Below are positions 420-64,000 of a DNA stretch of 64,000 bases, piece after piece. Position numbers and translations under genes: made by a program. Position 1 is the first letter of the stretch. Every line of letters starts with the position of its first letter. Location of the stretch: positions 124,001-188,000 of the forward strand of contig OZ237763.1 in the NCBI GenBank assembly GCA_965178125.1. Direction: 5' to 3'. The notes below the pieces were generated by a model. That model ran no database searches. It was not told where the DNA came from and saw nothing but the letters and a program-made list of their open reading frames with translations. This DNA comes from Bilabrum cf. latius (taxonomy: Eukaryota).

Positions 420-1950
420 TCATTCGTGCTTGCCTGCCCCCGCTCGGCGGTACGACTCCCCAGGGGTGAACGCCTCGATCCCAGTGATGCCCCGGCCCAG
501 GATGAGCGCGTGCACATCCGCCGTCCCCTCGTAGGTCACCACGGCCTCCAGCCCCACCGCGTGCCGGATCACGCCGTACTCGTCACTCACCCCGTTCCCG
601 CCCAGCATGTCACGGGCCTCCCTCGCGATGGCAAGGGCCTACACCGTGTTGTTCCTCTTCACCAGGCTGATCATCTCAGGGGGGCAACCCTCGGGCACAC
701 CGTTGGCCAGCCCTTGTTCCTTGACCCGGGCCACCTGCACGGCCCCCAGTAGACCGAGGGAGATGTCCGTGGCCATGTCTGCCAGCTTCTTCTGCACCAT
801 CTGGTTGGAGGCCAGCGGGGCACCGAACTGCTGCCGGTCCAGGGTGTACTGCCTTGCGGTGTCGTAGCAGTACTCGGCGGCGCCCATGGCACCAAAGGCG
901 ATCCCCAGCCGGGCCGAGTTGAGGCAGGAGAAGGGGGCCTTGAGCCCCTCCGCGAGGGGCAGTTGGTTGGCCTGGGGCACCCTGCAGTCGTCCAGGAAAA
1001 TCATGCCGGTGGGAGAGGCGCGCAGGGCCACCTTGCCCTCGATCTTCGGAGTGTCGAACCCGGGAGTCCCCCGCTCCACGATGAACCCCCTGACTTTCCC
1101 GTCGGCCGTGTCCCGCGCCCAGATGATCGCGATGTCCGCGATGGGGCTCGAGGTGATCCAGTTCTTGGCCCCGGTCAGTGACCAGCTGCCGTCCGGCTGC
1201 TTGGTGGCTCTGGTCTCCATGCCCGCGGGGTCTGAGCCGTGGTTGGGCTCGGTGAGGCCGAAGCAGCCTACAAGCTCGCCCGAGGCGAGGCGGGGCAAGT
1301 ACTGCGAGGGAGAGGTGATGACGTGTGATGTGGGGCGTGCGTTGGGAGGTGGGGGTGCGATCAGCGAGCGTTTCGGGCAATGACCTGCCGTGAGAGACTA
1401 GCAACTAATCATTGTAATTGTTCTAGTCGAGCCTTTGCCATGGTGCGAGCCACAGTGTGAGGCCACGCAGGCGACTTCACCTGGGCAGCTGGCCGCCAAG
1501 AAAACGCCTCACCTTCTCCTTTTGCTCATCAGATCCAAACTTGTAGATGGGGTGCATCACCAAAGATGATTGCACGCTCATGGCGGATCGGTACGCACTG
1601 TCCACGCGCTCAACTTCTCGGGCAATGAGGCCGTATGCCACGGTGCTCACGCCGGAACAGCCGTAGCCTTCGATCGTGGGGCCAAGGAGGCCCAGTTCCC
1701 CCATCTCGCGGAATATCTCGCGGTCAAACGTCTCATTTCGGAAATTATCGGTCACTCTCGGCATCAACTTTGCCTGAGCATATGAGCGGGCGCTATCCAT
1801 CACTAGTTTCTCTTCTTCTGTGAGCAACGATGCCATGCCAAGCGGGTCAGACGGGTCAAATCGAGCTAGAGATGCCATCGATCGACGGCCAACATGTTTT
1901 AATGCCCGACGAGAGGCATAGCCAAGCTTTTCCCCGATCGTTCGCAGCAT
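420..1950 (-). CDS. GCDH: Glutaryl-CoA dehydrogenase, mitochondrial; 2 exons (1950-1513, 1301-420); 1 in-frame TAG (639-641)
   Basis: Motifs [66 protein letters not shown]...[20 protein letters not shown]. Intron GTGAG...CGCAG, phase 0. Ends TGA. Confidence 0.95.
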
Positions 1951-2147
1951 AGTTGGGGAGATGTGCGTCTGCGCTAGGCGGAGTTTGCATCTTCATCTTT
2001 CAGGTTTTGGTTCTCGAAACGGTTGCAACCTCGAGTTGCCGGGTGCAACGCTTCGGAATGACTGCCCCGACTGCGCACTGTCGCTCAACTATGCTGCCGC
2101 AAAACCGATAAATATTCCAAGATAATCGTGTAATTAACCCGCAGGCT

Positions 2148-5100
2148 ATGTCAGGTGAGTGGCATCCTGATCATGCATGCGGGTAGACTGGCTACCGACT
2201 CGACCCCGACATTCCGTTGGTAACCACCACCAAATACGGAGATCACCGCCCAATCACCGACAGCGCATTGTCGAAGTACGTATTCTTGATGTTTCACACC
2301 CTTGCAGGCCGAGCACCTCCTCGTGGTCCGCCCCCTTCGGATTTGCCAAGGCGAGTGCCGCCAAGAGGCCCACCGCCAGGAGGCGTGGCGGGTGGGAGAC
2401 GGGCGCCTCCGTCGGGGGCTCCACCTCCAGGCGTTGCGAGACGAACGGGGCCGAACGCTGCGACCAGCGCCGACGTGCGCGCGCCGAGCATGGCGCCATC
2501 GGTGAATGCTTTAGCTCGAGCCGGCAGGAACCTGCCCCGGCCCGGCATGCCACCGCCGGGGGCATCCCGGAACATGATGCAGCCGCCCCGGGGGCCGCCC
2601 CCTGGCGCTGCCGCGTCTCCAAACAGGCGGGGCCCCCCAAGGGGACCCCCGCCGGGGGGGCTCACCCCCCAGAAACTCGCCGCTCACGAGACCCGCACCG
2701 GGGGCACCCCCATGGCATAGGGGGCACCCCCAGGACCCCCCAGGGGTCCACCCCCCGCTTCGCTGCTCGCCCGCCAGGGCCAGCAGCAGCCCAGGCCGGG
2801 AAGCAGAGCAGGAGCCCCCGGCGGATCCCCCGCCCCGCCGCGGGGACGACCCCCGGCCGCAGCCTTGCGAGCAGGCGGCCCCCGGCCAGCACCCCCTTCC
2901 GGCCCACCCCCCACCTCGGGGCCAGCGACCCCCGGGAAGGAAGGGGGCGACAGCGTGTGGGGCATCGGCACGGACGACGGCGAGGGGGCCAGGCGGGCAG
3001 CAGCGGCGGCCAAGGCGGAGCGGGAGCGCGTGGTGGTTGACCTGCCGGGCACTGCCTCGCGCGGGGGGGGTGCCCCGGGGGAAGAAGGGGACGACCTGGA
3101 GGAGCTGACCGTCCCCAGCACACCGGCCAAAGGAGTTCCAGGGAACAAAGGGGGCGCCGATTCCGAGTCCAAGTCGCCCTCCTCCTCGTCGTCGCCGCGA
3201 CGGCCACCACGGGCGTCGGCCGCGTGGCGGGAGGGCGAGGGCGAGGGCAAGGAGGACGAGGACGAAGGGAAGGGTTAGGGAGGGAAGGCGTTCGGGGCCG
3301 CCGCGGCCTCGGGGGCGGGAGCCGCCGCCGCCGTGGAAGGCGCCATATCGTCAGATTCGGAGCCGGAAACCATGAGCGGCGACCCGGGCGTGCCTCCGCC
3401 CCCCCAGCAGCTGTCCGCCGGAGACCCCCGCGGTGCCATGGCCACCGTGGCGCGCGTGGCCGCCGCCGCCGCGGACGCCTCGGGGATGCCTGGGGGGTAC
3501 CAGGGGGAGGCCCCCACACCGGGGACAAGCCCCGAGAGCCTGTGGCTGTTCGCCCGGCCCGGCCGTCTGTCCGTCACCCTTCTCCAGGGCAAGGGCATCT
3601 ACAAGCCCGGGCAGAGGGGCAGGCCCGCGAGGATAGACCCCTACGTCAAGATGGAGGTGGGCACTGGGGTGCAGCCACCCGCCCGTCCCCTGAGGGTCAA
3701 GAGCAAGACCCACGCGGGCCAGGGGGAAGACCCCGACTTGGGGTCAGAGAAGCTCCAGGTGTCCCTCCCCCACCCCAGGGAGCTCCAGTCGGAAGTCAGG
3801 CCCTCGGAGGAGGCCATGGAGCGCTTCAAGGGGCAGACCATTTCCAGGACGGACGTGGTCATACACGTGGAGGTGTGGGACCACAACATATTCGCGGACG
3901 AGCTGCTGGGGGAAGCCGACCTGAGCCTGCTGCCGATGCTTAAGTACACGAATGGAGGTGGGGAGGGCACCGTGCTGGGGAGCGAGCACTCGGGTGAGGC
4001 GGTGAGGCACACTGTTCCCCTCACGCTGGCCTCCAAGACGGGAGACCCCACCGCCGCCAGGGTCCCCGCCGGCACCTTGGAGGTGTCGATCGTGTTCCAG
4101 CCCTCCGAGCTGGGGATGCTTGTGCTGACCTGCCACGGGGGGAAGCACCTCGCCGACATGGACATGCTCGGGGAACAAGACCCATACGTGGTGGCCGAGC
4201 TGGGGGAGCAGAGGGTCCGCACCACCACCCAGGTGAACGGGGGCAAGCACCCGGATTTCAGGGACGAGGACCTGATCCTGCACGTGGAGCCGACCAGCTG
4301 GTCCCACGATGTAAGGGTCTCTTGCTACGACGAGGACACGGGGAGGGACGACCTGATCGGGTCTGCGGAAATACCGCTCATGCCGCTCATGCAGGCGGGC
4401 AGGCGAAAGGCCGAGCAGGAGGGGCGGCAGCCCGGGGGCGTGGCCCGGGCCAGGCTGGGCATCGCGCTGAAGGGGTCCTCGGGGCAGGCCGCGGGGGAGC
4501 TGGACCTCACCAGCGCGTTCTATCAGGCGGGCACGCTCACGGTGGAGGTGGCCGAGGGCAGGCACCTCCGGGATACGGACGTGCTGGGCGACATGGACCC
4601 GTACGTCAAGCTGTCCCTGGGGGGCGGGTCCAAGCCGCTCGAGGCCCAGACCGGGGTCAAGGCAGGGGCCGGCTCCGTGCCCGTGTGGAACGAGAGCCTG
4701 GTCTTCCACGTGGTGGACCAGCACGAGCTCAAGATCGAGGTCTGGGACTCGGACACCTTCTCCTCGGACGACCTCGTGGGCCAGGCCGCCATCAGCCTGC
4801 TGCCCGTGTTTAAGAAGGGCTACAGGGACGCGTGGGTGCCCGTCAAGCTCCGGAGCAACTGGGGGGCGCTGCAGGACTCGGGAGAAATCCGGCTCCGGAT
4901 CCGTTTCGAGGGCCCCCCCGGGGTGGCCTTCCCCCAGCGGCAGCCGTCCATGGACAGCTTCGACGACAGCGAGAGGGTCACGGAGAAGGGCCAGTCGGTG
5001 AGGGCCGCCCGGGCGGAGGCGGCGGAGGCCGCGGGGCTGCCCCCGAGCGCGGCGGACGCCATGGCGCTGCAGCAGGAGAGGCGTGGCCTGGACTCTGCGG

Positions 5101-6197
5101 GGGGGCCCGGGGGTGCCGCGCCTGGGTTCGGCGGGAAGGGGGGGGGTGCAGGAGGCCCCGGCGGCCAGGAGACGGACGAGTTCACGGACCAGGAGATCGA
5201 GGACGCGTTTCACTTCATCGACCTGGACAGGAACCTCTACATCGGGGCGGCCGAGGTGCGTCACGTGCTCGTGTGCATGGGCGAGATCATCACGGACCAG
5301 GAGGTGGACGAGATGATCCGGATGATCGACCAGGACGGGGACGGGCAGGTCTCCTTCGACGAGTTCTACCGGCTGGCCAAGCACCCCGACCCGGCCAGCC
5401 CGGAGTTTCAGCTCCGAGTCGCGGCGGGGGGCGGGGACGGCGGGGTCGGGCCACCGGCGGGCAGCGGGAGCCGGCGGGGCAGCGCCAGCGGCGGTGGTTC
5501 CCAGGCCCTTGTTCCCCGGGACAGGCAGGGCCGACTCCTCCCCGGACCACCCCCGGGGGGTGCCCCCGTGGCGGGCAAAGCGGCCCAGAAGGCGAGAGAG
5601 GCCCGGCTGCGTGAGGCCAAGGCAAGGTACCTGTAGGGCTTCGCCGAGGACAACCACCTGCGGATGGCCGACCTGCAGAGGGCCTACAGGCGCTTCAGGG
5701 CAGAGCAGGGCGGGGGAGGTGGGAAAGGTGGAACTGGGGGGCTCGAGGTGGGGTTCGACGGCATGTGCGGGATGTTCGACGCCGAGCCCACGGGTGAGGC
5801 GCGGCAGCTGTACAACGCCTTTGTGGATCCGGGCAGCGGGCGCGTGCCCGTGAAGCGCCTTCTCCTCGCGCTGAACAATTTCACGGGGACGGACAAGGCC
5901 CAGCGCGTTAGCTTTTGCTTCTGGCTGTTCGACGAGGACCGGAGCGGCTCTTTGGAGGAAGGGGAGCTCCTTGATATTCTGGTTGCCAACCACATGGCCA
6001 GCGGGCCGGAGGCGGTCCGCTCCAAGGCGCAGGTCATCATGAGACAGGCGGACAAGGACGGGAGCGGGACCATCGACCTGGACGAGTTCATCGTGGTCAG
6101 CCAGAAGTTTCCCAATTTGCTGTTTCCCATGCACGCGCAGGCAGGTGGAAATGGAAATGGGACTAGTGTCGGTGGTGCCGCGTCGGGTTTCGGATGA
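2148..6197 (+). CDS. Pro-rich N-terminus + three C2 domains + two EF-hand clusters (Ca2+/lipid-binding protein); exons 2148-2154 and 2308-6197; TAG at 2718, 3276, 5634
   Basis: ATGTCAG|gtgagt...ttgcag|GCCGA gives [12 protein letters not shown]. ORFs 2217, 2865, 3333 and 5664 share one frame, joined by TAGs. C2 motifs ([30 protein letters not shown]); EF loops [48 protein letters not shown]. Ends TGA. Confidence 0.85.
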
Positions 6198-6604: not shown

Positions 6605-9600
6605 ATGGGCTGCGGTGCGAGTCAACCGACTGCAGATCTCAGATCAAACGGCAGTAAGGAGCAGAGGGCTCAAAACGAGGGACACGGACATCGGAGGCGC
6701 AACACCGATGATCCCCTCGGAAATCGTCAAGATAATCTCGACGGATCTGGGGCAGAAAGGCAATCCAGCGCGAACCGAATAGTTCAGGGGCTATAGAAGT
6801 AGGCATAGCTTCGGTCTAGCGAAGGCAACGAGCCTGGGACCTCATCGGCGAATGCAAAGTCGAGGCCTCGTGGAGCGCTTGCAGCCGGCAACAGCGGTGA
6901 TGCAAGCAAGGACTCTGCGACTAGAGTAGAGTACGATGGTCTTCAAATCATTCCAAACAGTCAAACGGATAGAACGGGGTCTGGAAGCACCAGGGGATAG
7001 CAGAGAAGAGGCAGCCGCTTGGCCTCGTCGCTTGCCTCCGGGTCTGGCAGTCTCAGGGCAGTCCACATCGGCAGCCGCCTTAGCCAGAACGAAGAGTCCA
7101 AAGCAGATAGTTTTGTTGGTCACTCCGGGAGCTCTCACAATGGCGTTCGGCGGGGATCCCGCTCAGGATCGATGATCGACGGGGTGACTGTGACGGGGCA
7201 AGAGCAAAGGCTCAAGGATTCGGCGAGCGCAGACGTGGGAACTTCCGTTGATTTGCCGCGAGTGACGTACAATAGCTGCTCCGCGGGTGGGTTTCTAGCG
7301 CACGGGTCCGGATCAAGAGGTGGCGCGAGATTCGCGAGCGCCGACCCTGCCTTGGGGACGGGCACCGGCGCCGGCATGCACCGCGGCCATCATGGTGACC
7401 CGGCAGGAGGGCCCGGCAGCGGGAGCCTCTCGGAATACACGAGCTATTCCACCGTGGACGACGGTGAGATGGGCGGGGGCACCAGCAGCGAGGAGGGGGG
7501 AGGGGGTGAGAGGGACGATTCCATGGATGATTTCCGGATCGCGGAGGATGACGAGGACGGTGACGGTGACGGTGCTGTGGAAGGGGGGGAGGGTGGCAGC
7601 GGGAGCGGGTCTGCGAGCGGGATGCTGAGGGTCCGGGGCAGGGCGGGGCGGGGGACGCTGGGGGGGGAGCCCAGCGGGGGCAGCAGCAGCGCCGACAGCG
7701 ATTCGGAGCCGGAACTCGCCGGGGTGACGGGGCGAAGCAGAGCACCCGGTTCCATGGCGGGAGGAGGAGCCCAGGGAGGGTAGACCAACCCGGGCCAGGG
7801 GCAGAGTTAGGGACACGGCAGAGCGGGAGCAGTGGGCATCGGCGACGACAGCAGCCACTAGTAGAGGGAGGAGAGAGAGGACGGGCTGGTGGTGGGCAGG
7901 GGCACCAGGGAGAGGAGGCCCAGGGAGAGGTACTCCAGGCGGAATCGGCGCCGCGCCAACCGAGGTTCCGCAGCGCCTGGCGGCGCCGCGTTCGAAACCG
8001 GCACCTTTCCCTCGTCCAAGGAAGTGGTGGCCTCCCGGGACACGGCTTTCTATTCCGGGTCCTCCCAGCCCACGGAGTCGGACGGCGTGGAGGACACGTT
8101 CCCGCCCACCGAGGCCGAGATGGCCAAAGTGGACAGGGAGGGTTTCCTGCTGGACGTGAGGCTGCCTCCGGAGCACCCCGGCCGGCTGGTCCCGCCGGTG
8201 CACATGCGGCACCCCCCGGACCGGAAGCAGCCGGCCACGAAGCAGTCCCGGGAACTCAAGGCCGGCAAGCTCAGGAAGCTGCCCGAGACGAGGGAAGGCG
8301 AGCTGAAGGACTGGAGGCTGGGCAAGCTGCTTGGAAGAGGGTCCTTCGGGCTCGTTTTCGCAGCTAGGGAGCGGAAGACCGGCTACAGGGGTGCCATCAA
8401 GGTCATGGACAGGAGCCGGATCAAGGCGACTTCCATCAACCGGGAGTACACCGTGTTGGAGGCGCTGGGGCACCACCCCTCCGTGGTGAGGTACCTTGGC
8501 ACGTACAAGACGTGGGCCACCGTGTCATTTGCGATGGAGAGGGTGACGGGGGGGGAGCTCTTCGAGCACCTGATCCAGACGGGGGCCATGACCGAGGAAC
8601 AGGCGAGGTCCACCTTCGTGCCCGTGCTAAGGGGACTGGCATACCTGCACGGGGGGGCTGGCTCGGGCCAGGCCATCGTGCACCGGGACCTCAAGCCGGA
8701 GAACCTTCTGCTGGTGCCCATGCAGAAGGCCAAGAGGCAGCTGCACAGACACAGGCGCAAGATAAAGAGGTGGAGGAGACAGGTCCACAGGCAAAGGAGG
8801 GCCGAGCAGCAGGCCGGGCAGGGGCAGCAGGCAGTGCATCAGCCTATACAGAAGCATGCCAGCGTCGGTGGCCCCGTCACGCCCGTCGTGCTAGACGAAG
8901 GCGGCCCGCTCATCCGCAACAGGGGTGGTGTGACGAGTGGGCGCGTGACGAGTGCGGGAGCCGCCGGCATCTCGAAGCGCGGCGGAACCACGAGGCGCGG
9001 TCGGGCGGCAGCGCGGCGCCCAGGCGGCCCGGGCGTGGACCAGACCATGTCTGGCGGGTCCGGCGCCACCACTGTGGCAGCCAGGGTGCGCATGAAGGTG
9101 GCGGTCTCGGCTAAAGCGGACCAGCAGTCTCTGCCAGGGAGCACCGAGGACTCCAGCACGGCCGTGGACTCGCACTTGGGCGGGCAGGCGGACCCCGCCT
9201 CTGACGTGGTGATTGGTGGGATGTTTCCCGGCGAATCCTCCGTGGAACACAGCGAAGGGATGGGTGGGGCCATCCAGCAGACCCTTGGGCTTGGGTAGGG
9301 CGGGTCGGGTGCACGTCCGGGCCCGGGGACTGCCACACGCGGGACCAACCCTGGTGATGGGGCCGGGGCTGTGTCTCGAGCGAACGTTTACTTTGGCACC
9401 GGCACCGGTGCAGGCGAGGGTGTCGGGGACGGCATTGGGCCCATGGCCCCCGAGCTGCTGCGTGCCTCGATGGACTCGCAGGCGGGCCCATCGCCGGGGA
9501 CGGGCCAGGGAACAATGTTCCAGGGAACAACGGGTCGGAGAACAACCAGCACGGGGGGAGGCCCTGGCCGCGGGGAGTCCCACGTGGCCGTGACTGGCAG

Positions 9601-10927
9601 CAGGGAGCTGAGCCCCACGGGGACAGGGGGGGGCACTCCCACTGGCGGCATGAGGGGTGTGGGGAGGAGGAGCTTCGGCCTAGGTCGAAGTAGGGGCGGA
9701 GGCAGGAACAGCCGGTTCGCAGGCAGGGACGGCGGGCCGAGGGTGAATGACGGTTCGGCCGCTGGTACCGCCGCCGCCGCAGGACTCACACGAGTCACGG
9801 CAGAGCTGGACGCGCGGCCGGACGAGCCGAGGACGACCCGCCGGGCCAGGCGGCAGGCTCGCAGGGAACAGAGGAGGATGGCCCACTAGAGGAAGAGGCA
9901 GAGGCAGAGAGAGCGCGGGGTCGTTGTTCCCCTGCGGTCCCCCTGGCGTGTGGAAGGCGCCCTCGCCCTGAAAATCGCGGACTTTGGGCTGTCCCAGACC
10001 ATCGGCCCCAACGAGCGGCTGGTCAAGAGGGCGGGGTCCTGGGCCTACATGCCATGCGAGGCGGTGTAGGGACAGAGGAAGGGATACACGTGCAAGTTCG
10101 ACGTGTTCTCCTTCGGGGTCTGCCTGTACGTGGCCTGCGCGGCGGCGCACCCGTTCGACCCTGACGGCAACCTGCCCGTTGAAGAGATAAAGAGGAGGGC
10201 GAGACACGCCGAGTGGGGCTTCCAGGACCCCAGCTGGCCGTACCGCTCGGCGGAGCTGAAGGATTTCCTCAGGAGACTCATTACAAAGGACCCCAGGGAC
10301 AGGATGACGAGTGCCCAGGCCTTGATGCACCCGTGGGTGCTCGGTACCAAGCTCGGGGCTCCCGCCATCGTCAGGCCCGCCCTGCGGCTGAACCCGACCC
10401 ACAGCCGCTCCCAGGTCGACGAGCGAGGGAACACCGATTCCTCCGCTGATAGCACCATCAGCTCCACCCAGAGGTCCTCAGTTGGTATGACGAGTGCAGC
10501 GACGAGCACTACCGGCGCGGGCACTGACTCAGTGGTGCCGTGCATGATCCCGGGCCCTTCCAACGCTGCCAGGCAGCAGGTCATTTACCAGCAGCAGCAG
10601 CAGCAGCAGCAGCATTTGTTCCAACACCCGCAGGCCCAGATGCTGCTGGGGGGGCCCTCCCCGAGCGAGCCCGGCAGCGATCGTCACACTGCGGCCATGG
10701 CCGTGGCGGAGGTGATGCAGGGCATGTCGGGTGCGGGGGCTGGTGTGACGAGTGCGCGCGGGGGGCAGGACGCCCCGGGACCGGCAGCTGCAGGTCCCGG
10801 CGGAGTGATTGGGGGTCATCATTCCCCTGCTACCCCAAGTGGGGACATTGGGGCCCAGGGGGGAAGCGAGCACCCCGCAATGGGGTCATCGGCTCGTAGG
10901 GGGCTAAGCGCCACTCGGGTCGACTGA
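6605..10927 (+). CDS. CAMK-like Ser/Thr protein kinase, about 1440 aa, N-terminal MGCGAS acylation motif, large insertion within the kinase domain; 11 in-frame TAG
   Basis: One continuous frame (ORFs 6605, 7019, 7889, 9371, 10103) broken only by TAG at 6794, 6800, 6806, 6998, 7781, 7808, 7859, 7862, 9296, 9887, 10067. Motifs GRGSFG, AIK, GGELF, HRDLKPEN (8681), KIADFG (9971-9988), DVFSFG. Ends TGA. Confidence 0.85.
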
Positions 10928-15968: not shown

Positions 15969-16128
15969 GCCTTCATCGCATGGGCACGAATTAATGCAAA
16001 AGTACCATCTATTTGTAGCGAACCAGACCCAGTCCTAGAACGTTCGTTTATGATTTGTAACGAGCTGATTTACGAAAAAATACGACACAACTTTACGACC
16101 GATTTCACTGAGACCTTGACCTTAGCAA

Positions 16129-23589: not shown

Positions 23590-24525
23590 ATGGCATCTTC
23601 TGGCGCCGGCGGGCTTTTAGGCCCCAAGGCAGATCCGCCACCGTCGCTGATGGGCTTCGACGACGCCCTCCCCATGGAGCCGAACGCAGCAACGGCCCCG
23701 CCTCCCGCAAAGGTGCGAACAGGCAAGGAAGCACAGGTGGATGAGATCTTGAATTCTATTTTGCCACCCAGGTGAGTTGGTTTGTCTATCCAGAATACGA
23801 TCGGCCCGTGGTAGCTGGCGCTAGCTTTTGGAACCGGGCAGAACGCTAGCAATGTAGTCGACAACGGATAAGGCGATTGAAATCTCCTGCAGCCACGTAC
23901 CTTGTGACAATCTATGCCTCTTAAACAAGTAAGTCTTATCTCCGTTTCCTTTGTTTCTTCAAGCCGTCGCAGGATGTGGGAGCAAACCGACGGTTCGGCT
24001 TGGGTGCAGTACGTTTCGAAGGCCCCCGCCGAGCGCGTGGACGTCGACACGCTCGAGGCTGCTTTGGAGCAGAGGCTGATGGAGAGATAGGCGCGAGAAG
24101 GTGGCATTTGCTCCGTGCGAGAAGACCTGTTCCGGCAAGCCTTCGACGAGCTGATTCGGCAGGTGACGCTCAACAGCCCGGAGCGGGGCCTGCTCCTCAT
24201 GCGGGTGAGGGACGAGAGGAGGATGGCGCTCGACGCCTACAAGGCCCTGTTCGAGAGCTCGATCGTGTTCGGGGTGCGCAAGCAGCTTCAAAGCGAGGAG
24301 GGTATGGACAGGATGTCGCTGACGGTGAGGGAGCTGGAGGAGGACAAGAGGCGCCTCGAGGCCAGGGTGCTCCGGCTGAGGCACCAGAAGGACGCGATGG
24401 ACAAGAGGAGGAGGGAGAGGAGGGCACTGGATGCGTCGGCCAGGAAGGAGGAAGTTGACCTGCTGAGGCACGAGAACTAGCAGCTGGAGCAGTTCCTCAG
24501 GTCGCTGCCGGGTGGCAACAAGTGA
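23590..24525 (+). CDS. DNALI1: Axonemal inner-arm dynein light chain p28; exons 23590-23771 and 23973-24525; TAG at 24088 and 24478
   Basis: ILNSILPPR|MW...WVQYVSKAPAERVDV...RLMER*AREGGICSVREDLFRQAFDELIRQVTLNSPERGLLLMRVRDE...LLRHEN*QLEQFL. Ends TGA. Confidence 0.93.
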
Positions 24526-34508: not shown

Positions 34509-34647
34509 CGTTTCGCTGGCAGACACTGAAAAAGGTCTCACCAAGGTGTTCCTCTTCGGTGTGACGACTACATACGGTTGCAACCGGCTCCCGCCACCAG
34601 GGATCTCCTCGTGTGTGCCATTCGGTCCAACAGCCAGTCTACAGGGG

Positions 34648-51600: not shown

Positions 51601-54600
51601 GCGCTGCTGCCTCGAGTTGCCGCTGTCGATCTCCACGGAGGACGGCGCGATGCGGTCCGAGCCGAAGTTCACCATCACGCGATTGAGCGGGTCTGCCAGA
51701 GGCACGTTCCTGGTCAGCAGCTCGATCTGCGTGGGGTTGTCTATTGGCGAGTAGGTGTCGGCCGTGGCAGGCGTGACCTGAAGCACCTCAGCCGATGCGA
51801 AATCAAAGAAGGCGTCGTCCTCGGTTGGTTGAGGAGAGGCCTGGTCTGCCACCATGATGCGGAACCAGTGCCTCTTGCCAGAGGCAGGGGGCAGCGTCAC
51901 CTGAAGATGCGTGTGGTTCACGTGCGTGAAGAGAGTCCGGCGCACCTCGTACTGGCCACCTTGCTGGCCAAACGTCACACCCTGCAGCAGAGTCAGCGAG
52001 TTTTCGCCGAACGTCAGCTCCGGGGGCCCAAACTGCTCACCCACAATCCACAGCCGCTCGCCACCGTTCGGGTCTGCATCGACCACCGGAGACCACTCCT
52101 CGCCAACCCTCCACACTGCGTGCACCTCCGGCATGGCGTAGGCAGTCGTGGGGTTTGTGGACCGCTGTCCGTCCAGCAGGATGCTCCAGCGGAGGGCGCG
52201 ACCCGCACCAGGGGCGGTGTCGCACATTATGGCCTCGTGCGCAGTCACCAGCCTGCACCCGCTGGCCTCGAAGGTGACCTCGTCCTCGGGTCCGTTGTCC
52301 AGAGACACAGTGTACTCCACCAGTATGCGAGAGGCAAACACAGACTCAGGCACGGTCGGCCCAAAGTTGCGGCCGTAGACCGTCACCGGCTCCCCACCCG
52401 GGGTGTCGGCATCAGCAGCACCGGGGCCCTCGAATCGAGAGATCGTGGGTGCAGCGTATGAAGCATTGCTCTCATGCAAGTTGGAACCGAGGTTGGCCAT
52501 GACCACGCGGAACTCGAGCATGGTGCCAGTGCCCGGCACCATCACGCACTGCATCCTCGAGTCACTGTCCACGCGGCAATCCGATGCCACATACCGCAGA
52601 GACGAGTTGGGTGGGCCATACCTCACCTCAGTGATGGAGCCCAGAGTGGCCAAGAAGGCGGGCCCGAAGCCAGACCCCTCCAGCTGCACCTGCCGCCCGC
52701 CACGGGTGTCCACATCCTCGCCGTTCCGCACGGCGGTCAGCATGGGCGGGGCGTACGACATGAGGCGGTTGTCAGCCGGGATCTGAGACACGCCTTCCGG
52801 TCCCTGGTAGTCAGTCACATCGTTGCTGCGAACACCGTCCACCTCCACGATGATCTCGTGGCCCGCACCCACGCCAGGTGCCACTTCGCAGTCGATCACG
52901 GTGTGAGCCTGCTGGGACGTGGCGAACGGCTTGGAGCAGGACTCCATTGTGTGCTCGTACTCATCCATCCCATCCGTGGTGGTGCCCAGCGAGGGAGACA
53001 CCGATGACAGCCGGTACATGACGGTGACAGCAGCCGAGGCGGGGCCCAGGTTGGCTCCAGTGATGCGCACGGTCTGTCCTCCTGCTCCAGACAGCATGTC
53101 CTTGTTGACGCCCTGCAGTCCCTGCACGCTCGTGACGTACGGGGTATCATAACTGAAGGGCTGTGAGCTCACTTGGTCAGCAGGCTGCTGGGATGCTATG
53201 ACGGGCTCTGGAGGCGTGTCGCCCACGAACGGTCCCGACAGCGAGGAGTAGCCCATCTCGCCGTTGATCACCAGCGCCCAGTGCAGGTTGGCGCCAGAGC
53301 CCTCCACGCTCGCGCAAGTGAAGTTGTGCTGCGGCTCGGCACCTGCAGGGAGCGTGGTCGTCTGGCACTCGAACCGGGCCTGTCCATCGGCCGACCCAGA
53401 CGGCCGCTGGTAGAACAGCCTGCGCTTGCCCACGGGCCCTAGGTTAGTGCCAGAGATACTGATCACAGTTCCACCATCAGTGGCCAGCTGGAATGCGCTG
53501 GGGTATACCATGGAGATTTCAGGGTCGGCGTAATCGAATGACTGCGAAGTGGCGATAATGGCCACATCGGAGTCCACGATGGCGAAGGGGGCAAATCCGC
53601 GACCGTATCCCATGCCGTCACCTGGGGTGGTGCATGTGAAGTACTCATCGGGCATGTGACCGGGCCTGCAGTTCTACATCTCCACCTTCTGCTCCATGCC
53701 AGTGGCTGGGTCAGTGCGGTTGAAGTGCACCCTGTACGTGGAGCTCACGCTGCCGAGGTACTGGCCCGTGAAGTTGCAGTCCACGGCCTGGGTGGCGATC
53801 ACGGGCAGCTGCTCGCAAGTGAACGAGTCGATGATGGGTGTGTCGGTCAGGTTGGCCCTCACCACCAGAGCTACTGGCTTAGTGTCCGTCAGGTTGCCGT
53901 CCGTCACGGACAGGTGAGCGTGATACACAGCTCGCACCAGGGCTCCTCCCGGCACCACGTCGGACAGGAAGGGCCTGAACTCGCCCGAGTTGCTCCAGTC
54001 CCGAGGCGTGGGCTTGTTCTCCACCGTGATCTTGCCCGTGGCCGAGTCGATCGCGAACAGGTTCAAGGAGCCGTCCGTCAGCGGCCCGGCCGTCATGCCG
54101 GTGGCTGTCGTGATGTTGCCAGAGGTGGCCAGGCTGTACGTGAGAGCCACCCGCCACATGCCGTTGTCCTCGTCCTGCACCTCGGGGTCGGGAGAGAAGG
54201 TGTTGAACTGGGTGCCTGCACCCGTACGCAGCACAGCACCGAACTCGTCCACGATGAGAACCTGGTCCATTGCGATCACGGGGGCATCGTTCACATCCCG
54301 CACCTCCACACGGAGCAGCTCCTCCACACGGTTGTCCGCGATGTCCCTGATCTCAATGATAGCCAGGAACTCGGGGGCGCTCAGCCCGCCGTCCTTGGCC
54401 TCGAAGTTGAAGGGCATGTCGTTGCTGTCCAGCTTCATGTACATCTGGCCAGCTGCCGTGATGCCTAGCCGCTGGGACTCGTCGAATGCGATGCGGAAGG
54501 TCAGGGGGTCGTTCTCGGGGTCAGTGGCGATGGTGGCCAGCGACACACCCACGGAGCTGCCGTTGCCCAGGTTCTCGTCGGTGAAGATGCGCGACCCTGG

Positions 54601-57600
54601 AGGCAGGCTCGGGGGCTCGTTCACATCCAAGATGTCCACAGTCACGCCCACATCGATGTGCGAGCCGGGGAAGCCGTTCACGCCCACCCGCACAACCAGG
54701 TCGAACACCTGCCTGCTCTCGTAGTCCAGCAGCGTTGGGTCCCTCACACTCAGCTGCCCGTCGCACAGCCCAATCTTGAACGTGTCGCCGTCGTTGCCGC
54801 CCACGATCGAGTACTCCAGCTGCTCGTCGGTTGCGTCCAGCTCCGCCGTGAGCGGATCACCGATGGGCGTGTTACGGGGCGAGTTCTCGTCGATGGAGCG
54901 GGTCTGGTTGTCCAGGCGGGGCGGGCGGATGAGGCACGTGGGGGCAGTGGACAGCGTCCATGTGCCGTTCAGGCGGCACGTGTCAACGGCCAGCGCGCTG
55001 TCGCCAGTGCCCTCAATACCGCCAGCGGGCGACACCAGGTCGAATCCGGTCCTGCAGTTAAGTTTGCACGTGTCCTGGTGGGTGGTGCCGCGGCATCCCG
55101 AGACAGTGTCCCCTCCCGTGACAGCGCACGACTTCTCCACCTCAAAATCGTCGAACAGAGCCTGGGCCTCGCCAGGGGACACGAACACGCCCACATCGCC
55201 CGAAGGGATGGTGGAGTCCTCCACCTCCACCACCACGGCCCCGTTGATCTCCAGCGAGAACTTCCGCCCGTCCAGCTTCACCACCACCTCGTGCCACTCG
55301 CCAGAAGCCAGAGTCAGCGCGCCCTCCCCCAGCACCACACCGGTGCCGCTGCGCTGCAGCACGATGCGCTGCGGGCTGCCGCTGGATTCGGTGTTGCCGG
55401 TCACAGCAGCTCCACCCAGCTGCGTGGCTGGCACTGTAGACACCATGGCCTGGTAGTACGTGGATGAATCAGCCGACCGGAACACGATGCCGGCCTGGCC
55501 CCGGGCCTCCTTGGGCTCCATCCTCAGTCGAGTGCGGATCTGGTGGAAGCCGTCGCTGATGGAGCGCGGGTCTGGGTCTGTGACCATGGCCACAACGCCC
55601 TGCGTCTCTCCGTAGAAGGCGCCGATGAGGTCTGCGTTCCCCTGGCACCCCTGCCTGCTGGGCGCAAGCACCAGCATGCTGTCGATGGCGAAGATGTGCT
55701 TGTCGCTGGGGGACGTGTCCTCAGCGATGCTCATGAAGCGGGGCTGGGCCCTGTCCGAGATCGAGAAGTCCTCCTTGATCACCGTCTGCAGGCACGTCGC
55801 GGCACCGGCAGGGGCAGGCCGGGCGGGGCACTGCTGCGAGCAGACCAGGTCAGGGGCGGACCATGCACCCTTGCGGCACACAGCAGACGAGGCACCGGCA
55901 GCTGCCGAGTACCCAGCATCGCAGGATAGCGTGCACTGGTCACCTGTACGTGCACCACTACACACAGATCCAGCTGTCTCGGTAGCATCGTCTGTCTCCC
56001 TTGTGTCGCAGCCGTCGAGGGCGAAGATGCGCGTGTCGCATATAGTAAGGTAGGTCCAGTCCTGTCTGGTAATAAACACATACCGGCCAGGCAGGTTGCA
56101 GTTGACAGGCACGTAGGTCATTATTTGAGGCGCATTCCAGGGATAATCCACCTCGCACTGCGTGTTCTGGGTGGGGCTGCCTGAGCTGTCGCCGATGTAC
56201 ACGCGGAAGCCGTTCAGGCGGTTCCTGCTGCCATCAAGCCGTCCAGCCACGTCAACACGGGTTACGAACTCCTGCTTCTGCAAGTCGATGCGGATCCACG
56301 GGCCCCATCGCCAGTTCGAATGCGTACAGCGCCAGCCATCATGGCGCAGGTTGTAGTTCGTGTCGGTTGCGCGAGGTGGCCACCCACCGTGAGCCTGTCC
56401 GTTGCTGGCCACCGGCTTGAGCCTGCCGACCTGGACGTCGTTCACAGCCTGGGCGGTCACCCGCACAGCCCTCGAAGGGTCCGCCTCGGGGCCGAAGCCC
56501 GCCTAGGATCCTGCCGCCACATCGAACCGGTAGGAAGTGTCCGGGGACAGCCCGGGGATCAGCGCCTCGTAGTTGCCAGCCGTGGACGTCATGGCATCGG
56601 CTGCAGAGATGAATCGAGCGGGACCCGGCGTGGTGCAGTCCCTGATCTTGAGAGTGAAGTCGTCGAAGCGGAAGCGGGTCTGGCCGTTGATCCAGGACTT
56701 GATGAAGAGACCCACACGCACGTTCTGCATGCCCCCGTTCCTGAGCCAGCCCTCGGGGAACTGGGTCCAGAACTGCCTCCAGCCGCGGTTCTCGTAGCAC
56801 TCCCTGCGGGTCTCGCCCTGGGAGCACGTCTTGTAGGTGAAGTCAATCAGACGCCGAGCACCCGTCCGCTCGGCACGCAGCCAGGCACCATACTAGCTGT
56901 TCCAGTGAGACCTGTAGTTCGTGCCGTCCTTCTCCAAATTGATCTGGAATCCGTTGTTTACCCGCCGAACCCCGTAGTACAGCTTGTGCATGTCATCGTT
57001 GAGCTCGTAGAACATGATGCCACCGATGCGGTTGTTGCCGATGTACCCAGCCTCCATGTTGACCCACACCTCGATGGCCCAGTCGTTCTCTTCCATCCAC
57101 CCGTTCGTGCCCTCCTCGTCGGTCAGCCCAAGCGGGAAGTGCTCCCGGTACAGAATGGGACAGTCGCGCTCATTGGCAGTCCAGCAGTTGATGTTGTTGC
57201 CGCCCCGCATCACCAGCACGCCATTCCCGTCCGGCTCGGTCACCTGCTGAAAGGCAGAATCAGACCTCCCGTTCGTCACGAAGGTCCATCCGTTGGCCAG
57301 AGAGGGGTTGTCGAACGTCTCCACGAAGGCCTGCGGCAAGGACCGCACCTTGAACCCAGTCAGACTGGAGTAGTACCCCGTGTCTGCACCGGCGGGGAAC
57401 TGCCAGCGCACCGTGGCCTGCTCCCGCCCCGTCACAGCCGTCACAGTCCTGGGCGCCTCCGGGGGCTCTGCCTGGCACACCGGGGTGCGGCCCTGCAGCT
57501 GGCCCTCGGGGGAACACACCACGGGGTCGCCCTGCACCGGGTTGCGCTCCGTGAACTCTTGCGCCGAGTCGCACGTGTAGTACTTAGCCCCGCGGAAATC

Positions 57601-59682
57601 GTTCACAGAAGACACGCCCGTGGTGTCCACATTCCTGCACTCATCCATCTCGATCAAGCGAAGGTCGGCCATGACATCCGAGCCAGAAGCCGCCCCTGCC
57701 CTGCCACCGAACAGCACCAGCTGGTTGCCGCCCGCCAGCTGCTGCAGACGGGCTCCCACGCGTGCCTGAGGCGCATCGCCTACCAGCTTGAGGGTGCTCT
57801 TGAAGCCGAGAGCCACGGTGTCGAACACGTGCACATCGCTCAGGGCGGTGCCAGCGTCGTTCACACCGCCGAACAGGAACATGCTGCCGCGCGTGGTGAC
57901 GGCCGTGTGGGCGTACCTGGCAGAAGGGCTGTCCAGCATCTTGTTGGCGAACACCTTCACCTCGCACAAGGTCAGGGTCCCTGACCTGATGGCTACAAAG
58001 ACGAATCGCCCCCGCAGGTTGCAGTCAATGTCAGCGGACGTTCCCACGTTGTTGGGCACATCGGGGCACGATGGGTTGGCGGACCAATCGTCCCGGATGT
58101 TGCCTACTGTCACGAAGAAGTTCCGCAGGCGGTTGTTGCAGCACGAGTCCGTCCGGTCCCACAGCTGGATCATAGACACGTCCACGGTGCGGCCCAGGTC
58201 CACGCGCCACCAGCGGTCACCCGATTGAGATCCAGTATGCGTGCACGATTCGGAGGAGTAACGGCCGTCGGTGCGACCGTCCACAGCGCGGGAGGGTACA
58301 CCACTATGGTCGATTGACGATTGCGCAGTGGGCATGCCCCTTGCAACCTCCTCCACGCCCCCGCCCAGCTGCAGCCACGTGTACGGCTCAGGCCCAAACA
58401 CCTCCAGCTCGCACACCTGCAGCATCCTGCCGGTGCCTGGGATGTACACGATCACGTACTGACCCACCTGCCCGTCGCACTGGAAGTCGATGTGGGAGCC
58501 GCGCGGCTGATCAGTCGCCGAGTACTGCGAGGTGCACTCCCGGAGGTCATCGTCCCAGTTGCTGGCGCCCACCTGGTCCGAGAGGGCGACCTTGATGCCG
58601 CGGTTGCGCTCCGTGCAACAATCAGTCCTCATCCACACGCGCGCTCGCTGCACCTTTGCAGTGCGCTGCAGGTTGACCCACATGCGCGGGTTGGTGGAGC
58701 CGGATCCACCCGTCGAGTGGTAGCACGAGCCGCTGGCCATGTTACCGTTGGTGTTGCCGTCCACGGCCCTACTTGCCGCGTATACAGTGTGTTGGTTTAG
58801 CCTCCCAGTGGGCCTGCCCCTCGCGATGTTGGTGAGGCCGTCCTCGGTCAGGAACCCCTCCGAGGAGATCATCCACATGTCGCCCAGCACGCGGTCGCTG
58901 TCGGTCATGCCCCCGAACAGGATGGCACGAGAACCGGCCGCATCTGGAACGAAGGATGCGAGCTCCCTGCGGGCTGGCGCGTCGGTCTGGGCCCCAGAGG
59001 GCCTCAGCCACGATCGAGAGTTGTCGGTGTTGAGCGCAGTGACCGCGTAGGTGTCGCCGAGGAGGGCGCCACCCGCCGTCTTGCCACCGAACACGACCAG
59101 GCAGTTCCTGCCGAGTCGACCGTCGCATTTACGAAGTTGTGCCATGTGCGCGTTCAGCCGGGCAGCCGGGGCTGTCCCTCCGCTAGGAGTTGAGGGAGTG
59201 ACGTCCCGCCACTGCATGCGGTCCATTCGGAACTCGAACAGCTTGTTCGTGGCGGCAGATCCCTTGACTGCCTTGCCGCCGAATACCCACATGCGGCCCT
59301 CGTTCGACGCGATTACAGAGCCTTCGTAGCTCGCTGGCCGTGCGCTGCTGGCGCCTTGCATCATCGAAGAAATGTCATTGCTCCAGTGTCCATCTGCGAG
59401 AGTGCAACACGTGGTTCAATACTGCTATATTCGTGCACAATTCAGCGACGCCCGATGGGCTGAATTGGATTAATATTAAACCTTACCAGGACTGAAGATC
59501 CTTGCATCGTCAAATTCGTCGCCGTTCTCATCGACTCCCCCGAGCACCAGCGCATGCGATTTGTTCGACGCGAACAAGAAGTCCGATCGACCGTCTGGTG
59601 CGTTCTGGAGTCCCCTCTCTTTCCAAGTAAGCTCTGCAGCAAACGCAAGCGCCATCATTACAGCCACAATGATGACTGACAT
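45646..59682 (-). CDS. Giant (about 4650 aa) surface receptor/adhesin: signal peptide, Kelch, F-type lectin x3, sushi, FN3, ConA-like, cadherin, many IPT/TIG, Cys-rich, multi-pass TM, cytoplasmic tail; exons 59682-59487 and 59393-45646; 6 TAG
   Basis: Seven supplied ORFs share one frame, separated only by TAG at 56893, 56503, 53674, 51433, 50287 and 48166. Fucolectin-type motifs (SRAVDG...CTHT...RTDSCCNNRL), cadherin motifs (LDYE, DVNEPP, DVNDAP), IPT motifs (GGxxVTIxGxNFG). Ends TGA. An alternative ATG lies at 59718. Confidence 0.85.
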
Positions 59683-62600
59683 GCCTTCACGGCTCTGCGA
59701 ACAATATTGATCAACCATGACAACTTGAAAACTTGCTGTAGGCTGTCTTATCTTGCTAAAATAGTGGACAGAATAATAGATGAAGGGGTTTGATGGCCTT
59801 ACATGCAGATATTTACTCGCGTCTGAAGCGCAAGACTACTACCTGCCGCACGCGCTCGCTTTTGGTATGGCTTGGAACGGCCTGAGACAAACTTTGGACA
59901 CAGTGTCGACGCGTTACACGCAAACCAACTGCAACTGTCGCATTGGTGGATGTCTTTCATGACGATGATCCGAAAATGGCGTATATGGCTCAATTTAATA
60001 CTTCAAGATGTGCATTTTTTCTAATATATTGCCTATTGGATATTTATTCATACCATGGCACCGTAAACCCGCAATCCTTCTGGAGCGACAAAAAATCGGT
60101 GAATTTGGTCGCAAGTCTCGCTCGCGAACATACGCCACCTGATGACAAAGTTGTGGTTCATTTAGCGTACAATTCGTTGACATCTTTGTGAGGCACAGAA
60201 ACTATCTGATCGATTGTGTATTTAATCAACATCCGTGGTATCGTGTTGCAATAGTTAGTATGCGCATCATTCAAGCGATTCCAAGTGCCCTTTCCACGTC
60301 GCGCGCAGGACGTTCCCACCTAGGATTTCCAAGGATCATGCAGGGCAACCTGCAAGTGTTTTTAGTTTTAACGATTGTCTCGTACGCGGTTGCATAGTCG
60401 CCTTCCCAGCAACTGACCTGGTAGGTGCGAGGCCTCCAGAACGCTCCTGGCGGTCGGTCGAACCATGTCTTCACATCAAATGCGACCCATGCGTTTGTCA
60501 TGGGAGGCATTGATGCTGACGGAGATGAACTTGATGGTGTCTTCAGCTTCAGTTCCGGTAAGTGGACATCATTTTCGCACAATTAGCGAGTTTCTGTGGA
60601 GGTAATCAAAGCGACGTCATCACTCGAATCAGATTGTACACACCGCAGAAGGCGCTTGGTCCAATGATTTATCGAATACAGTATTTGGAACTGCTGCAAA
60701 CCGCCCGAACAGCCTCGTGGGTACTGCCGTTGCGGAAGATCGACGAAACGTGTTTATTTTCGGCGGTGCTTCTGTGTCGGGTTCCTCAGCCTCAAACAAG
60801 GTCTTCAGGCTGCGAACCGACACACTGGAATGGACAGATCTAAGCATCGGCGCGGCCAGCACTGCAGACAGAGCGACTGCTCGCATCAATCCTCACATGG
60901 CTCACTTGCGCAAGTGCGACGGCGTTCTAGACCGAAACTGCCTGGTCGTGTTCGGCGGCAAGACGGCGGGTGGCGCCCTCCTCGGCGACACCTACGCGGT
61001 CACTGCGCTCAACACCGATGCCAGTCGGGCTTGGATCAAGCCTTCCGGTGCCCAGACCGACGCGCCAGCCCGCAGGGAGCTCGCATCCTTCGTTCCTGAC
61101 GCAGCTGGTTCCCGCGCCATCCTGTTCGGGGGCATGACCGACAGCGACCGCGTGCTGGGCGACATGTGGATGATCTCCTCGGAGGGGTTCCTGACAGAGG
61201 ACGGCCTTACCAACATCGCGAGGGGCAGGCCCACGGGCAGGCTGAACCAGCACACTGTGTACGCGGCAAGTAGGGCCGTGGACGGCAACACCAACGGTAA
61301 CATGGCCAGCGGCTCGTGCTACCATTCGGTAGGTGGATCCGGCTCCACCAACCCGCGCATGTGGGTCAACCTGCAGCGCACTGCAAAGGTGCAGCGAGCG
61401 CGCGTGTGGATGAGGACTGATTGCTGCACGGAGCGCAACCGCGGCATCAAGGTCGCCCTCTCGGACCAGGTGGGCGCCAGCAACTGGGACGATGACCTCC
61501 GGGAGTGCACCTCGCAGTACTCGGCGACTGATCAGCCGCGCGGCTCCCACATCGACTTCCAGTGCGACGGGCAGGTGGGTCAGTACGTGATCGTGTACAT
61601 TCCAGGCACCGGTAAGATGCTGCAGGTGTGCGAGCTGGAGGTGTTCGGGCCTGAGCCGTACACGTGGCTGCAGCTGGGCGGGGGCGTGGAGGAGGTTGCG
61701 AGAGGCATGCCCACAGAGCAGTCAACTACCGACTACGATGGTGTGCCCTCCCGCGCTGTGGACGGTCGCACCGACGGCCGTTACTCCTCGAACTCGTGCA
61801 CGCACACTGGATCTCAATCTGGTGACCGCTGGTGGCGCGTGGACCTGGGCCGCACCGTGGACGTGTCTATGATCCAGCTGTGGGACCGGACGGACTCGTG
61901 CTGCAACAACCGCCTGCGGAACTTCTTTGTGACGGTGGGCAACATCCGGGATGATTGGTCCGCCAACCCGTCGTGCCCCGATGTGCCCAACAACGTGGGA
62001 ACGTCCGCTGACATCGACTGCAACCTGCGGGGACGATTTGTCTTTGTAGCCATGAGGTCAGCGTCTATCACCTTGTGCGAAGTGAAGGTGTTCGCGAACA
62101 AGATGCTGGACAGCCCTTCGGCCAGGTACGCCCACACGGCCGTCACCACGCGCGGCAGCATGTTCCTGTTCGGCGGTGTGAACGACGCTGGCACCGCCCT
62201 GAGCGATGTGCACGTGTTCGACACCGTGGCTCTCGGCTTCAAGAGCACCCTCGAGCTGGTGGGCGATGCGCCTCAGGCACGCGTGGGGGCCCGTCTGCAG
62301 CAGCTGGCGGGTGGCAACCAGCTGGTGCTGTTCGGTGGTAGGGCAGGGGCGGCTTCTGGCTCGGATGTCATGGCCGACCTTCGCTTGATCGAGATGGATG
62401 AGTGCAGGAACGTGGACACCACGGGCGTGTCTTCTGTGAACGACTTCCGCGGGGCCAAGTACTACACGTGCGACTCGGCGCAAGAGTTCACGGAGCGCAA
62501 CCCGGTGCAGGGTGACCCTGTGGTGTGTTCCCCCGAGGGCCAGCTGCAGGGCCGCACCCCGGTGTGCCAGGCAGAGCCCCCTGAGGCGCCCAGGACCGTG

Positions 62601-64000
62601 ACGGCTGTGACGGGGCGGGAGCAGGCCACGGTGCGCTGGCAGTTCCCCGCCGGTGCAGACACGGGGTACTACTCTAGTCTGACTGGGTTCAAGGTGCGGT
62701 CCTTGCCGCAGGCCTTCGTGGAGACGTTCGACAACCCCTCTCTGGCCAACGGATGGACCTTTGTGACGAACGGGAGGTCTGATTCTGCCTTCCAGCAGGT
62801 GATCGAGCCGGACGGGAATGGCGTGCTGGTGATGCGGGGTGGCAACCAGATCAACTGCTGGACCTCTGCCCAACGCGACTGTCCCATTCTGTACCGGGAG
62901 CACTTCCCGCTTGGGCTGACCGACGAGGAGGGCACGAACGGGTGGATGGAAGAGAACGACTGGGCCATCGAGGTGTGGGTCAACATGGAGGCTGGGTACA
63001 TCGGCGATGCTCGTATTGGTGGCATCATGTTCTACGAGCTCAACGATGACATGCACAAGCTTTACTACGGGGTTAGGCGCATCGATGGAGGATTCCAAAT
63101 CAATCTGGAGAAGGACGGCGAAGGGTATAGGTCTCACTGGAACAGCTAGTATGGTGCCTGGCTGCGTGCCGAGCGGACGGGCTCTAGTCGTGTGATCGAC
63201 TTCACCTACAAGACGTGCTCCCAGGGCGAGACCCGCAGGGAGTGCTACGAGAACCGCGGCTGGAGGCAGTTCTGGACCCAGTTCCCAGAGGGCTGGCTCA
63301 GGAACGGGGCCATGCAGAACGTGCGCGTGGGTCTCTTCATCAAGTCGTGGACAAACGGCGAGACCCGCTTCCGCTTCGACGACTTCACTCTCAAGATCAG
63401 GGACTGCACCACGCCGGGTCCCACTCGATTCATCTCTGCAGCCGACGCCACGACGTCCACAGCTGGCAATTACGAGGCGCTGATCCCCGGGCTGTCCCCG
63501 GACACTTCCTACCGGTTCGATGTGGCGGCAGGATCCTAGGCGGGCTTCGGCCCCGAAGCGGACCCCTCGAGGGCTGTGCGGGTGACCGCCCAGGCTGTGA
63601 ACGACGTCCAGGTCGGCAGGCTCAAGCCGGTGGCCAGCAACGGACAGGCGCACGGTGGGTGGCCACCTCGCGCAACCGACACGAACTACAACCTGTACCA
63701 CGACGGCTGGCGCTGCACGCATTCTGACTGGCGCTGGGGCCCGTGGATCCGCATCGATCTGCAGAAGCAGGAGTTTGTTACCCGTGTGGACGTGGCTGGA
63801 CGGCTTGATGGTAGCAGGGACCGCCTGAACGGATTCCGGGTGTACATCGGCGACAGCGCAGGCAGCCCCACCCAGAACACCCAGTGCGAGGTGGACTATC
63901 CCTGGAACGCGCCTCAAATAATGACCTACGTGCCTGTCAACTGCAACCTGCCTGGCCGGTATGTGTTTATTACTAGACAGGACTGGACCTACCTTACTAT
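56041..64000. repeat. Large inverted duplication: about 56041-59140 (minus) versus about 60900-64000 (plus)
   Basis: The reverse complement of the left arm matches the right arm over about 3.1 kb with scattered substitutions, and the match continues to the window end. Confidence 0.93.
60338..64000 (+). CDS. Second, divergently transcribed paralogue of the giant receptor (5' part, runs off window); exons 60338-60557 and 60649->64000; TAG at 60395, 60422, 63147, 63537
   Basis: MQGNLQVFLVLTIVSYAVA*SPSQQLTW*VRGLQNAP aligns with AELTWKERGLQNAP of copy 1. Same phase-1 first intron. Near-identical to copy 1 from about 60930 onward. Confidence 0.85.

Follow-up and report, generated by a model that had tools for sequence, protein, structure and literature searches.

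The nuclear genetic code used in the 64-kb window analysed here (the whole stretch, 64,000 nucleotides, positions 124,001 to 188,000 of contig OZ237763.1) gives UAG a sense meaning, in all likelihood glutamine, while UGA (mainly) and UAA still terminate translation; we put the probability of this reading at about 0.8. The code was examined in these 64 kb and in the proteins of relatives, from which the genome-wide reach given to it in the initial annotation is an extrapolation. That UAG is a sense codon in nuclear genes had been proposed in the initial annotation of this DNA, and the proposal was borne out by homology, by intron-less contigs, by a second sample and by the points at which open reading frames (ORFs) of relatives, 76-98% identical at the protein level, break. 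Nuclear genes of an ordinary eukaryotic kind occupy both strands of the window, and the ORFs were delimited by treating TAG as sense and TAA and TGA as stops. Frame counts were made on 15 trimmed coding segments comprising 14,992 codons. Frame 0 held 48 TAG, 0 TAA and 0 TGA; frames +1 and +2 of the same segments held 59 and 55 TAG, 21 and 34 TAA, and 312 and 209 TGA, respectively. TAG is equally common in frame and off frame, and TAA and TGA are kept out of frame. At least one TAG was present in 11 of the 15 segments, the other four being NDUFV2, DUF2961, EMP70 and PABP. The longest stop-to-stop ORF grew from 942 to 4589 aa once TAG was taken as sense. The initial annotation had counted by hand about 60 in-frame TAGs in 16 genes; the spread over many genes was confirmed, but the firm count was slightly lower, at 48 to 54. 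Beyond the 48, three TAGs were found in exon 1 of a gene for a four-transmembrane (4-TM) protein and three in a weak Ac45/VOA1-like ORF. The genes with in-frame TAGs, their positions and the support for each were as follows.

423..1992, minus strand: glutaryl-CoA dehydrogenase (GCDH), split over two exon ORFs, with the N domain in 1480-1992 and the middle and C domains in 423-1307; PF02771, PF02770, PF00441; one TAG at 639-641, within the C-terminal domain; gene end TGA.
2151..6194, plus strand: C2/EF-hand protein; Pfam C2 and EF-hand; four TAGs (2184, 2718, 3276, 5634); end TGA.
6605..10924, plus strand: protein kinase with long low-complexity inserts; Pkinase in two stretches, E 5e-52; 11 TAGs; end TGA.
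23968..24522, plus strand: axonemal inner-arm dynein light chain p28; PF10211, E 7e-60; TAGs at 24088-24090 (site 1) and 24478-24480 (site 2); end TGA.
24775..27690, minus strand: Cys-rich membrane protein, recognised by its ORF and codon pattern, with no family in the Pfam search; three TAGs (27565, 27127, 25963); end TGA.
27966..29999, plus strand: NUFIP1-like low-complexity protein; PF10453, E 1.4e-5; six TAGs; end TGA.
30117..31790, minus strand: PLD-like domain protein; PF13091, E 5e-20; one TAG (31449-31451); end TGA.
32098..34514, minus strand: ZPR1 zinc-finger protein with an intron at about 33837-34096; PF22794, PF03367; TAGs at 33322, 32995 and 32416; end TAA.
38224..39206, minus strand: spliced gene of the 4-TM protein, supported by a contig splice joint; intron 38643-38812; exon-1 TAGs at 39060, 39012 and 38841; no Pfam match.
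40701..44705, plus strand: ankyrin-repeat protein; Ank families; nine TAGs in the trimmed ORF; end TGA.
45649..59415, minus strand: giant surface protein of 4589 aa with kelch, F5/8-C, fn3, cadherin, TIG and transmembrane segments (Pfam); six TAGs at 56893, 56503, 53674, 51433, 50287 and 48166; end TGA.
60606..63998, plus strand: partial paralogue corresponding to the 5' part of the giant gene, running past the window edge (Pfam); TAGs at 63147 and 63537.

The five TAG examples quoted in the initial annotation were all found as written, and its statement that frame and domain continue past the TAG agreed with gapless homology in p28, GCDH and ZPR1, in which conserved parts lie downstream. When homologue sets of 120 sequences (GCDH and ZPR1) or 150 sequences (p28) were aligned, exactly one residue stood opposite each TAG. 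The Protein Data Bank (PDB) alignment of GCDH with the human enzyme (E 5e-109) spanned the TAG without a gap, as did the PDB alignments of p28 at both of its TAGs. The alignment with mouse ZPR1 ran through the TAGs of that gene, again with a single residue opposite each; the spliced N-terminus of ZPR1 read through, and the C-terminal motif Y.R....N..LGL.DM, carried by at least 30-50% of the 120 homologues, was located downstream of the third TAG. The kinase TAG at 10067-10069 lies in the activation-segment/P+1 region; the C-lobe alone matched Pkinase over aa 46-170, a span that includes the TAG (aa 80), and the domain continues after it. An EF-hand pair of the C2/EF-hand protein (EF-hand_9 match, aa 1270-1329) was found downstream of its last TAG (aa 1175), the fn3 match at aa 914-989 of the giant-gene paralogue contained a TAG (aa 978), and two TAGs of the ankyrin-repeat protein were at the edges of ankyrin-repeat matches.

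The giant gene and its paralogue form head-to-head inverted copies, 56042-59148 on the minus strand and 60894-64000 on the plus strand, with 94.3% DNA identity over 3119 bases (154 mismatches) and a spacer of about 1.2-1.7 kb on their shared promoter side. Both copies keep both TAGs, which are the first two of the giant gene. The coincidence of two TAGs at the same positions in the two paralogues, pointed out in the initial annotation, was therefore present, but it is not independent evidence because the copies are a 94.3% identical inverted duplication.

Contigs of four public runs (X4-X7) were compared with the window over 23900-43899, which holds 28 TAG sites. X4 was another sample, with the organism label of the best-matching runs; X5, X6 and X7 belonged to two other studies with two other organism labels, and the RNA nature of these three sets of assembled contigs was an automated guess for which missing introns were the one backing. 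X4 contigs covered 28/28 TAG sites with 0 differing letters. Contig pieces of X5, X6 and X7 covered 20, 12 and 13 of the 28 sites, with no differing letter reported. Three introns, each GT..AG on the gene strand, were absent from the X5-X7 contigs: 33837-34096 in ZPR1, about 34664-35054 on the 5' side of PABP, and 38643-38812 in the 4-TM gene. All three were retained in X4. Because the X5-X7 contigs skip GT..AG introns, they look like processed transcripts. The joint 38642>38813 of the 4-TM gene (CT..AC, which is GT..AG on the minus strand) was found in contigs of X5, X6 and X7, and the contigs that lack this intron keep all three TAGs. Both p28 TAGs were in an X5 contig (0 differences), seven TAGs of the ankyrin-repeat protein lay within one X5 contig of 5561 bases (0 differences), all six TAGs of the NUFIP1-like protein were in X4 contigs (0 differences), and two of the three TAGs of the Cys-rich membrane protein fell within X5 and X6 contigs. 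Retention of the TAGs after splicing, which the initial annotation called for, was thus seen in these intron-less contigs, if their guessed RNA label is right.

The identity of X4, together with the TAG-keeping intron-less contigs, contradicts consensus error, splicing-out and editing for 23900-43899. The chance that the TAGs are artefacts, whether consensus errors, pseudogenes or short in-frame introns, is practically nil. Besides the identical second sample and the three runs whose intron-less contigs keep the TAGs, the alignments place one residue and no gap opposite each TAG, the frames are interrupted by TAG and never by TAA or TGA, and three TAG positions are common to relatives.

The segment 23900-33899 was also found at 0.29-0.69 of sampled words in runs filed under two other organism labels, and at a small share (0.05) in runs labelled 'algae metagenome' and 'protist metagenome'. 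The organism may be an associate of other organisms or a co-inhabitant of their cultures.

The amino acid was assessed largely through relatives of the window organism, which are known as proteins called with the standard code and hence cut at their own in-frame stops; as these are protein sequences, the stop at such an ORF end is TAG by inference. Fragments of the giant gene from relatives (76-82% identical) tile aa 1352-3729. For six of these fragments the longest contig was 11,176 bases each, apparently the same contig, and the breaks therefore lie inside contigs rather than at their ends. Six distinct ends were seen among the giant-gene fragments, after aa 1884, 2416, 2883, 2970, 3630 and 3729, and the next codon in the window was CAG in 6/6 cases (chance 4e-9, given 184 CAG among 4589 codons). 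At two of these ends (aa 2884 and 3631), read-through members of the same 90% clusters carried Q. Three more ends stood directly before TAGs of the window: at aa 1914 of the giant gene, in a relative 96% identical; at aa 577 of ZPR1, before the third TAG, in P0121 (69% identical); and at p28 site 2, directly before which the P0241 and P0412 sequences end. In p28, Q was the residue at site 1 in 101/150 homologues (K in 9), in P0241 and P0412, and in a 93% identical relative; at site 2, Q was carried by P0413 (98% identical). Judged from these sequences, a stop codon and CAG appear to swap freely across the clade, which is the pattern expected of synonymous TAG/CAG change if TAG encodes Gln. UAG, for which the initial annotation had named no amino acid, would thus most likely be Gln, which is clearly favoured on balance, with few conserved sites to draw on.

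Several observations weigh against Gln. The column at the GCDH TAG held K in 101, R in 14 and Q in 1 of 120 homologues (K/R in 115/120), and P0001, 97% identical, has K there; if TAG is Gln, 639-641 would be a Lys-to-Gln change at a conserved site. In ZPR1, P0121 has R at aa 275 and M at aa 384, the column at aa 384 was mixed (K 41, F 17, H 13, R 10, L 9 and Q 8 of 120), and the first zinc finger has K at the position paralogous to aa 384. The residue at aa 2661 of the giant gene was M in P0393 and P0407-P0409. Overall, a residue from a relative could be set against five TAG sites and was Gln at one of them (p28 site 1), to which P0413 adds site 2. By column frequencies at the well-aligned sites alone, Lys did slightly better than Gln in a hand calculation. 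The context of neighbouring residues ranked K first and Q ninth, with a spread of only 4.3 nats over 270 neighbours. The Pfam score of the kinase C-lobe was 79.2-79.4 bits whether the TAG was entered as Q, K, E, L, S, Y, W, R, M or X; neither this score nor the neighbour context told the candidates apart.

That UAG is sense but stands for Lys, for another residue or for an ambiguous reading is nevertheless highly improbable. The GCDH column and the K of its 97% identical relative, the commonest residue at ZPR1 aa 384 and its paralogous finger, and the neighbour ranking speak for Lys, and a change of UAA to Lys is described for one ciliate (PMC11687900). The six ORF ends of the relatives, however, matched AAG in 0/6 and CAG in 6/6 cases, with Q in the read-through sisters at two of them, and close relatives have Q at both p28 sites, where site 1 favours Q over K by 101 to 9. 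Leu, Ser and Glu were considered and set aside: none of the six ORF ends lay opposite TTG, TCG or GAG, and the conserved columns of p28 and GCDH contained little or no L, S or E. Recoding of the pyrrolysine (Pyl) type, with pylT/pylS genes and UAG at a few specific enzyme sites, seems unlike this case, in which TAG occurs in 11/15 unrelated genes and matches Gln codons of relatives.

Met counterparts of TAG were seen in 69-79% identical relatives at 32995-32997 (ZPR1) and 51433-51435 (giant gene), Met being a rare residue and two base changes away from TAG. TAG codons in this genome may often stand at substituted positions. Together, the Lys site of GCDH and the Met and Arg counterparts hint that TAGs arise, or are tolerated, at positions not derived from Gln.

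Termination was examined at 13 gene ends, of which 12 were TGA and one, that of ZPR1, was TAA, about 35 codons past the conserved C-terminal motif. UAA and UGA appear to remain stops; for UAA the evidence is weak because a single gene ends in TAA. If TAA also encoded Gln, the CAA/CAG ratio of 0.141 would predict some 6.8 TAA codons in frame, and 0 were observed (Poisson P about 0.001), a result that comes from a small sample and is partly circular, the ORFs having been delimited by TAA. It is unlikely that UAA and UAG (together UAR) both encode Gln, with TAA merely too rare in GC-rich DNA to be met in frame. The two codons usually change together (PMC11687900, PMC5304391), TAA is rare throughout the window (313 TAA, against 727 TAG and 1599 TGA on both strands), and it stands at just one gene end. 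The deficit of in-frame TAA and the position of the ZPR1 stop point the other way. Reading TAA as sense lengthened no long ORF in the window, although rare use would be compatible with a GC-rich sample of 64 kb.

No gene in the window requires TAG as a terminator. One site weighs against a purely sense role: a TAG of the ankyrin-repeat gene (aa 1455 in the long ORF) precedes the TGA by 23 codons and is a possible true terminator. A context-dependent UAG, with a sense meaning within genes and a stop meaning where some of them end, would accommodate this site and is compatible with ORFs that were defined with TAG as sense. Dual-meaning codes exist (10.1101/2022.04.12.488043), with precedents for other codons in Condylostoma, karyorelicts and Blastocrithidia. 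We consider such a double role quite improbable here: TGA ends 12 of the 13 genes, none of which needs TAG for the purpose, and the p28 TAG located 14 codons from the gene end is aligned with homologues that extend beyond it and is Q in the 98% identical relative.

With UAG as a Gln codon, TAG made up 48/680 (7.1%) of TAG, CAG and CAA combined. NDUFV2, DUF2961, EMP70 and PABP had 0 TAG among 103 Gln codons, where the frequency seen in the other genes would give about 9. The four look like housekeeping or highly expressed genes, which suggests that TAG is a rare Gln codon shunned by well-expressed genes.

As in other codes, such a change would call for a tRNA with the anticodon CUA, which probably arose from tRNA-Gln(CUG) and would be charged by glutaminyl-tRNA synthetase (GlnRS), and for an eRF1 that would have lost recognition of UAG and kept that of UAA and UGA. 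Within the 64 kb of the window, a tRNA search with ARAGORN and an Rfam search each gave 0 matches, and eRF1 was not among the genes. What the sequence evidence assembled here shows is sense read-through of UAG across many unrelated genes and a match of UAG to Gln codons of relatives.

The remaining recognised genes of the window, all assigned by Pfam, were as follows.

16308-17075, plus strand: NDUFV2, a complex I subunit; 0 TAG.
17494-18200, plus strand: DUF2961 protein; 0 TAG.
Near 19180-19340, minus strand: QCR6, the bc1 hinge protein.
20148-22079, plus strand: EMP70/TM9SF; 0 TAG.
35399-37639: PABP, poly(A)-binding protein; 0 TAG.

The description of the organism as a GC-rich aerobic flagellate, given in the initial annotation, fits the presence of NDUFV2, the QCR6 hinge protein, GCDH and the axonemal p28 light chain, and the G+C content of 62.6%. 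The region from 12 to 20 kb had a lower G+C content (57%) and few recognisable genes, and it was noted as containing both tandem-repeat arrays, a 42-base perfect repeat in three copies (11712-11836) and C-rich repeats of 31/63 bases (13891-14093). The Pfam search matched nothing in the minus-strand LRR-like ORFs at 14132-16121. A Gly/Met-rich repetitive coding stretch of PABP (37090-37099) showed a 3-base GGC indel among the contigs of X4-X7. An assignment of the 4-TM protein to SCAMP was withdrawn, as it had no Pfam support.

The lineage was approached through single genes. In a FastTree phylogeny of ZPR1 (one gene, one fast method), in which the sequence placed was that of the 69% identical relative and not the window's own, this relative stood among environmental sequences beside ochrophyte stramenopiles and outside a group with Fungi and Metazoa (local support 98). 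The GCDH FastTree was uninformative for placement, and ESM Atlas matches of EMP70 were to broad eukaryotic clusters only. PDB similarities of NDUFV2 and p28 gave no consistent affinity: the best scores for NDUFV2 were with chains that we take to be mammalian and fungal, and the best for p28 with a chain presumably from Chlamydomonas. A ciliate, diplomonad, oxymonad or fornicate identity is clearly ruled out for the organism, which may be an aphelid or an ulvophyte. We lean slightly towards a clade, made up of the window organism, near-identical strains and the 76-82% identical environmental relatives from several metagenome assemblies, that would be undescribed, aerobic, GC-rich and non-ciliate, with UAG alone reassigned to Gln, UGA as nearly the sole terminator and an origin of this code independent of those in ciliates and fornicates.

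Nuclear stop-codon reassignments are rare, and those of UAG without UAA are rarer still; such UAG-only cases serve as tests of how eRF1 discriminates UAG from UAA and of how codes evolve. An independent case would be added by an aerobic lineage that is GC-rich and intron-poor and whose environmental relatives share the trait, and TAG/CAG polymorphism inside the clade would allow the gain of TAG codons to be traced. Public protein catalogues carry genes of the clade (P0391-P0411, P0121, P0241 and P0412) as strings of short ORFs; they are mis-annotated in metagenome catalogues because calling with the standard code cuts the proteins at in-frame stops.

Known codes resemble the one proposed here to different degrees. 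Beyond the systems named below, a literature search that included few subscription journals found no report of a GC-rich aerobic flagellate outside the ciliates with reassigned UAG. According to PMC11687900, PMC5304391 and PMC6299283, UAR is read as Gln in many ciliates, Hexamita, an oxymonad, ulvophytes and the aphelid Amoeboaphelidium protococcarum. These systems share UAG as Gln with the window, and some are also non-ciliate; Amoeboaphelidium is an aerobic parasite of algae, and the window stretch also occurs at small shares in 'algae metagenome'. Unlike them, the window has 0 in-frame TAA and one gene that ends in TAA. UAG-only changes are described in the same three papers for the uncultured rhizarian exLh (Leu), Iotanema spirale (Gln), Scotinosphaera (Ser), and Protocruzia and phyllopharyngean ciliates (Gln, Leu), and PMC11687900 also reports a ciliate with UAG as Glu and UAA as Lys. 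In exLh, Scotinosphaera and that ciliate UAG shifts without UAA following, as in the window, but Leu, Ser and Glu are unsupported here.

The closest parallels are the codes in which UAG alone became Gln and UAA was kept as a stop, described for Iotanema spirale, Protocruzia tuzeti and two phyllopharyngean ciliate lineages (PMC11687900 and PMC5304391) and named 'genetic code 15' in PMC9523058. The hosts of code 15 are ciliates or an anaerobic fornicate, whereas the window encodes complex I and bc1 subunits, GCDH and an axonemal dynein chain, and, unlike a ciliate macronucleus or a fornicate, combines 62.6% GC with long genes and few GT..AG introns on a 64-kb contig. Code 15 systems share with the window the same codon, the same likely amino acid and the same uncoupling from UAA, and code changes in which UAG becomes Gln while UAA stays a stop, though rare, have precedents.

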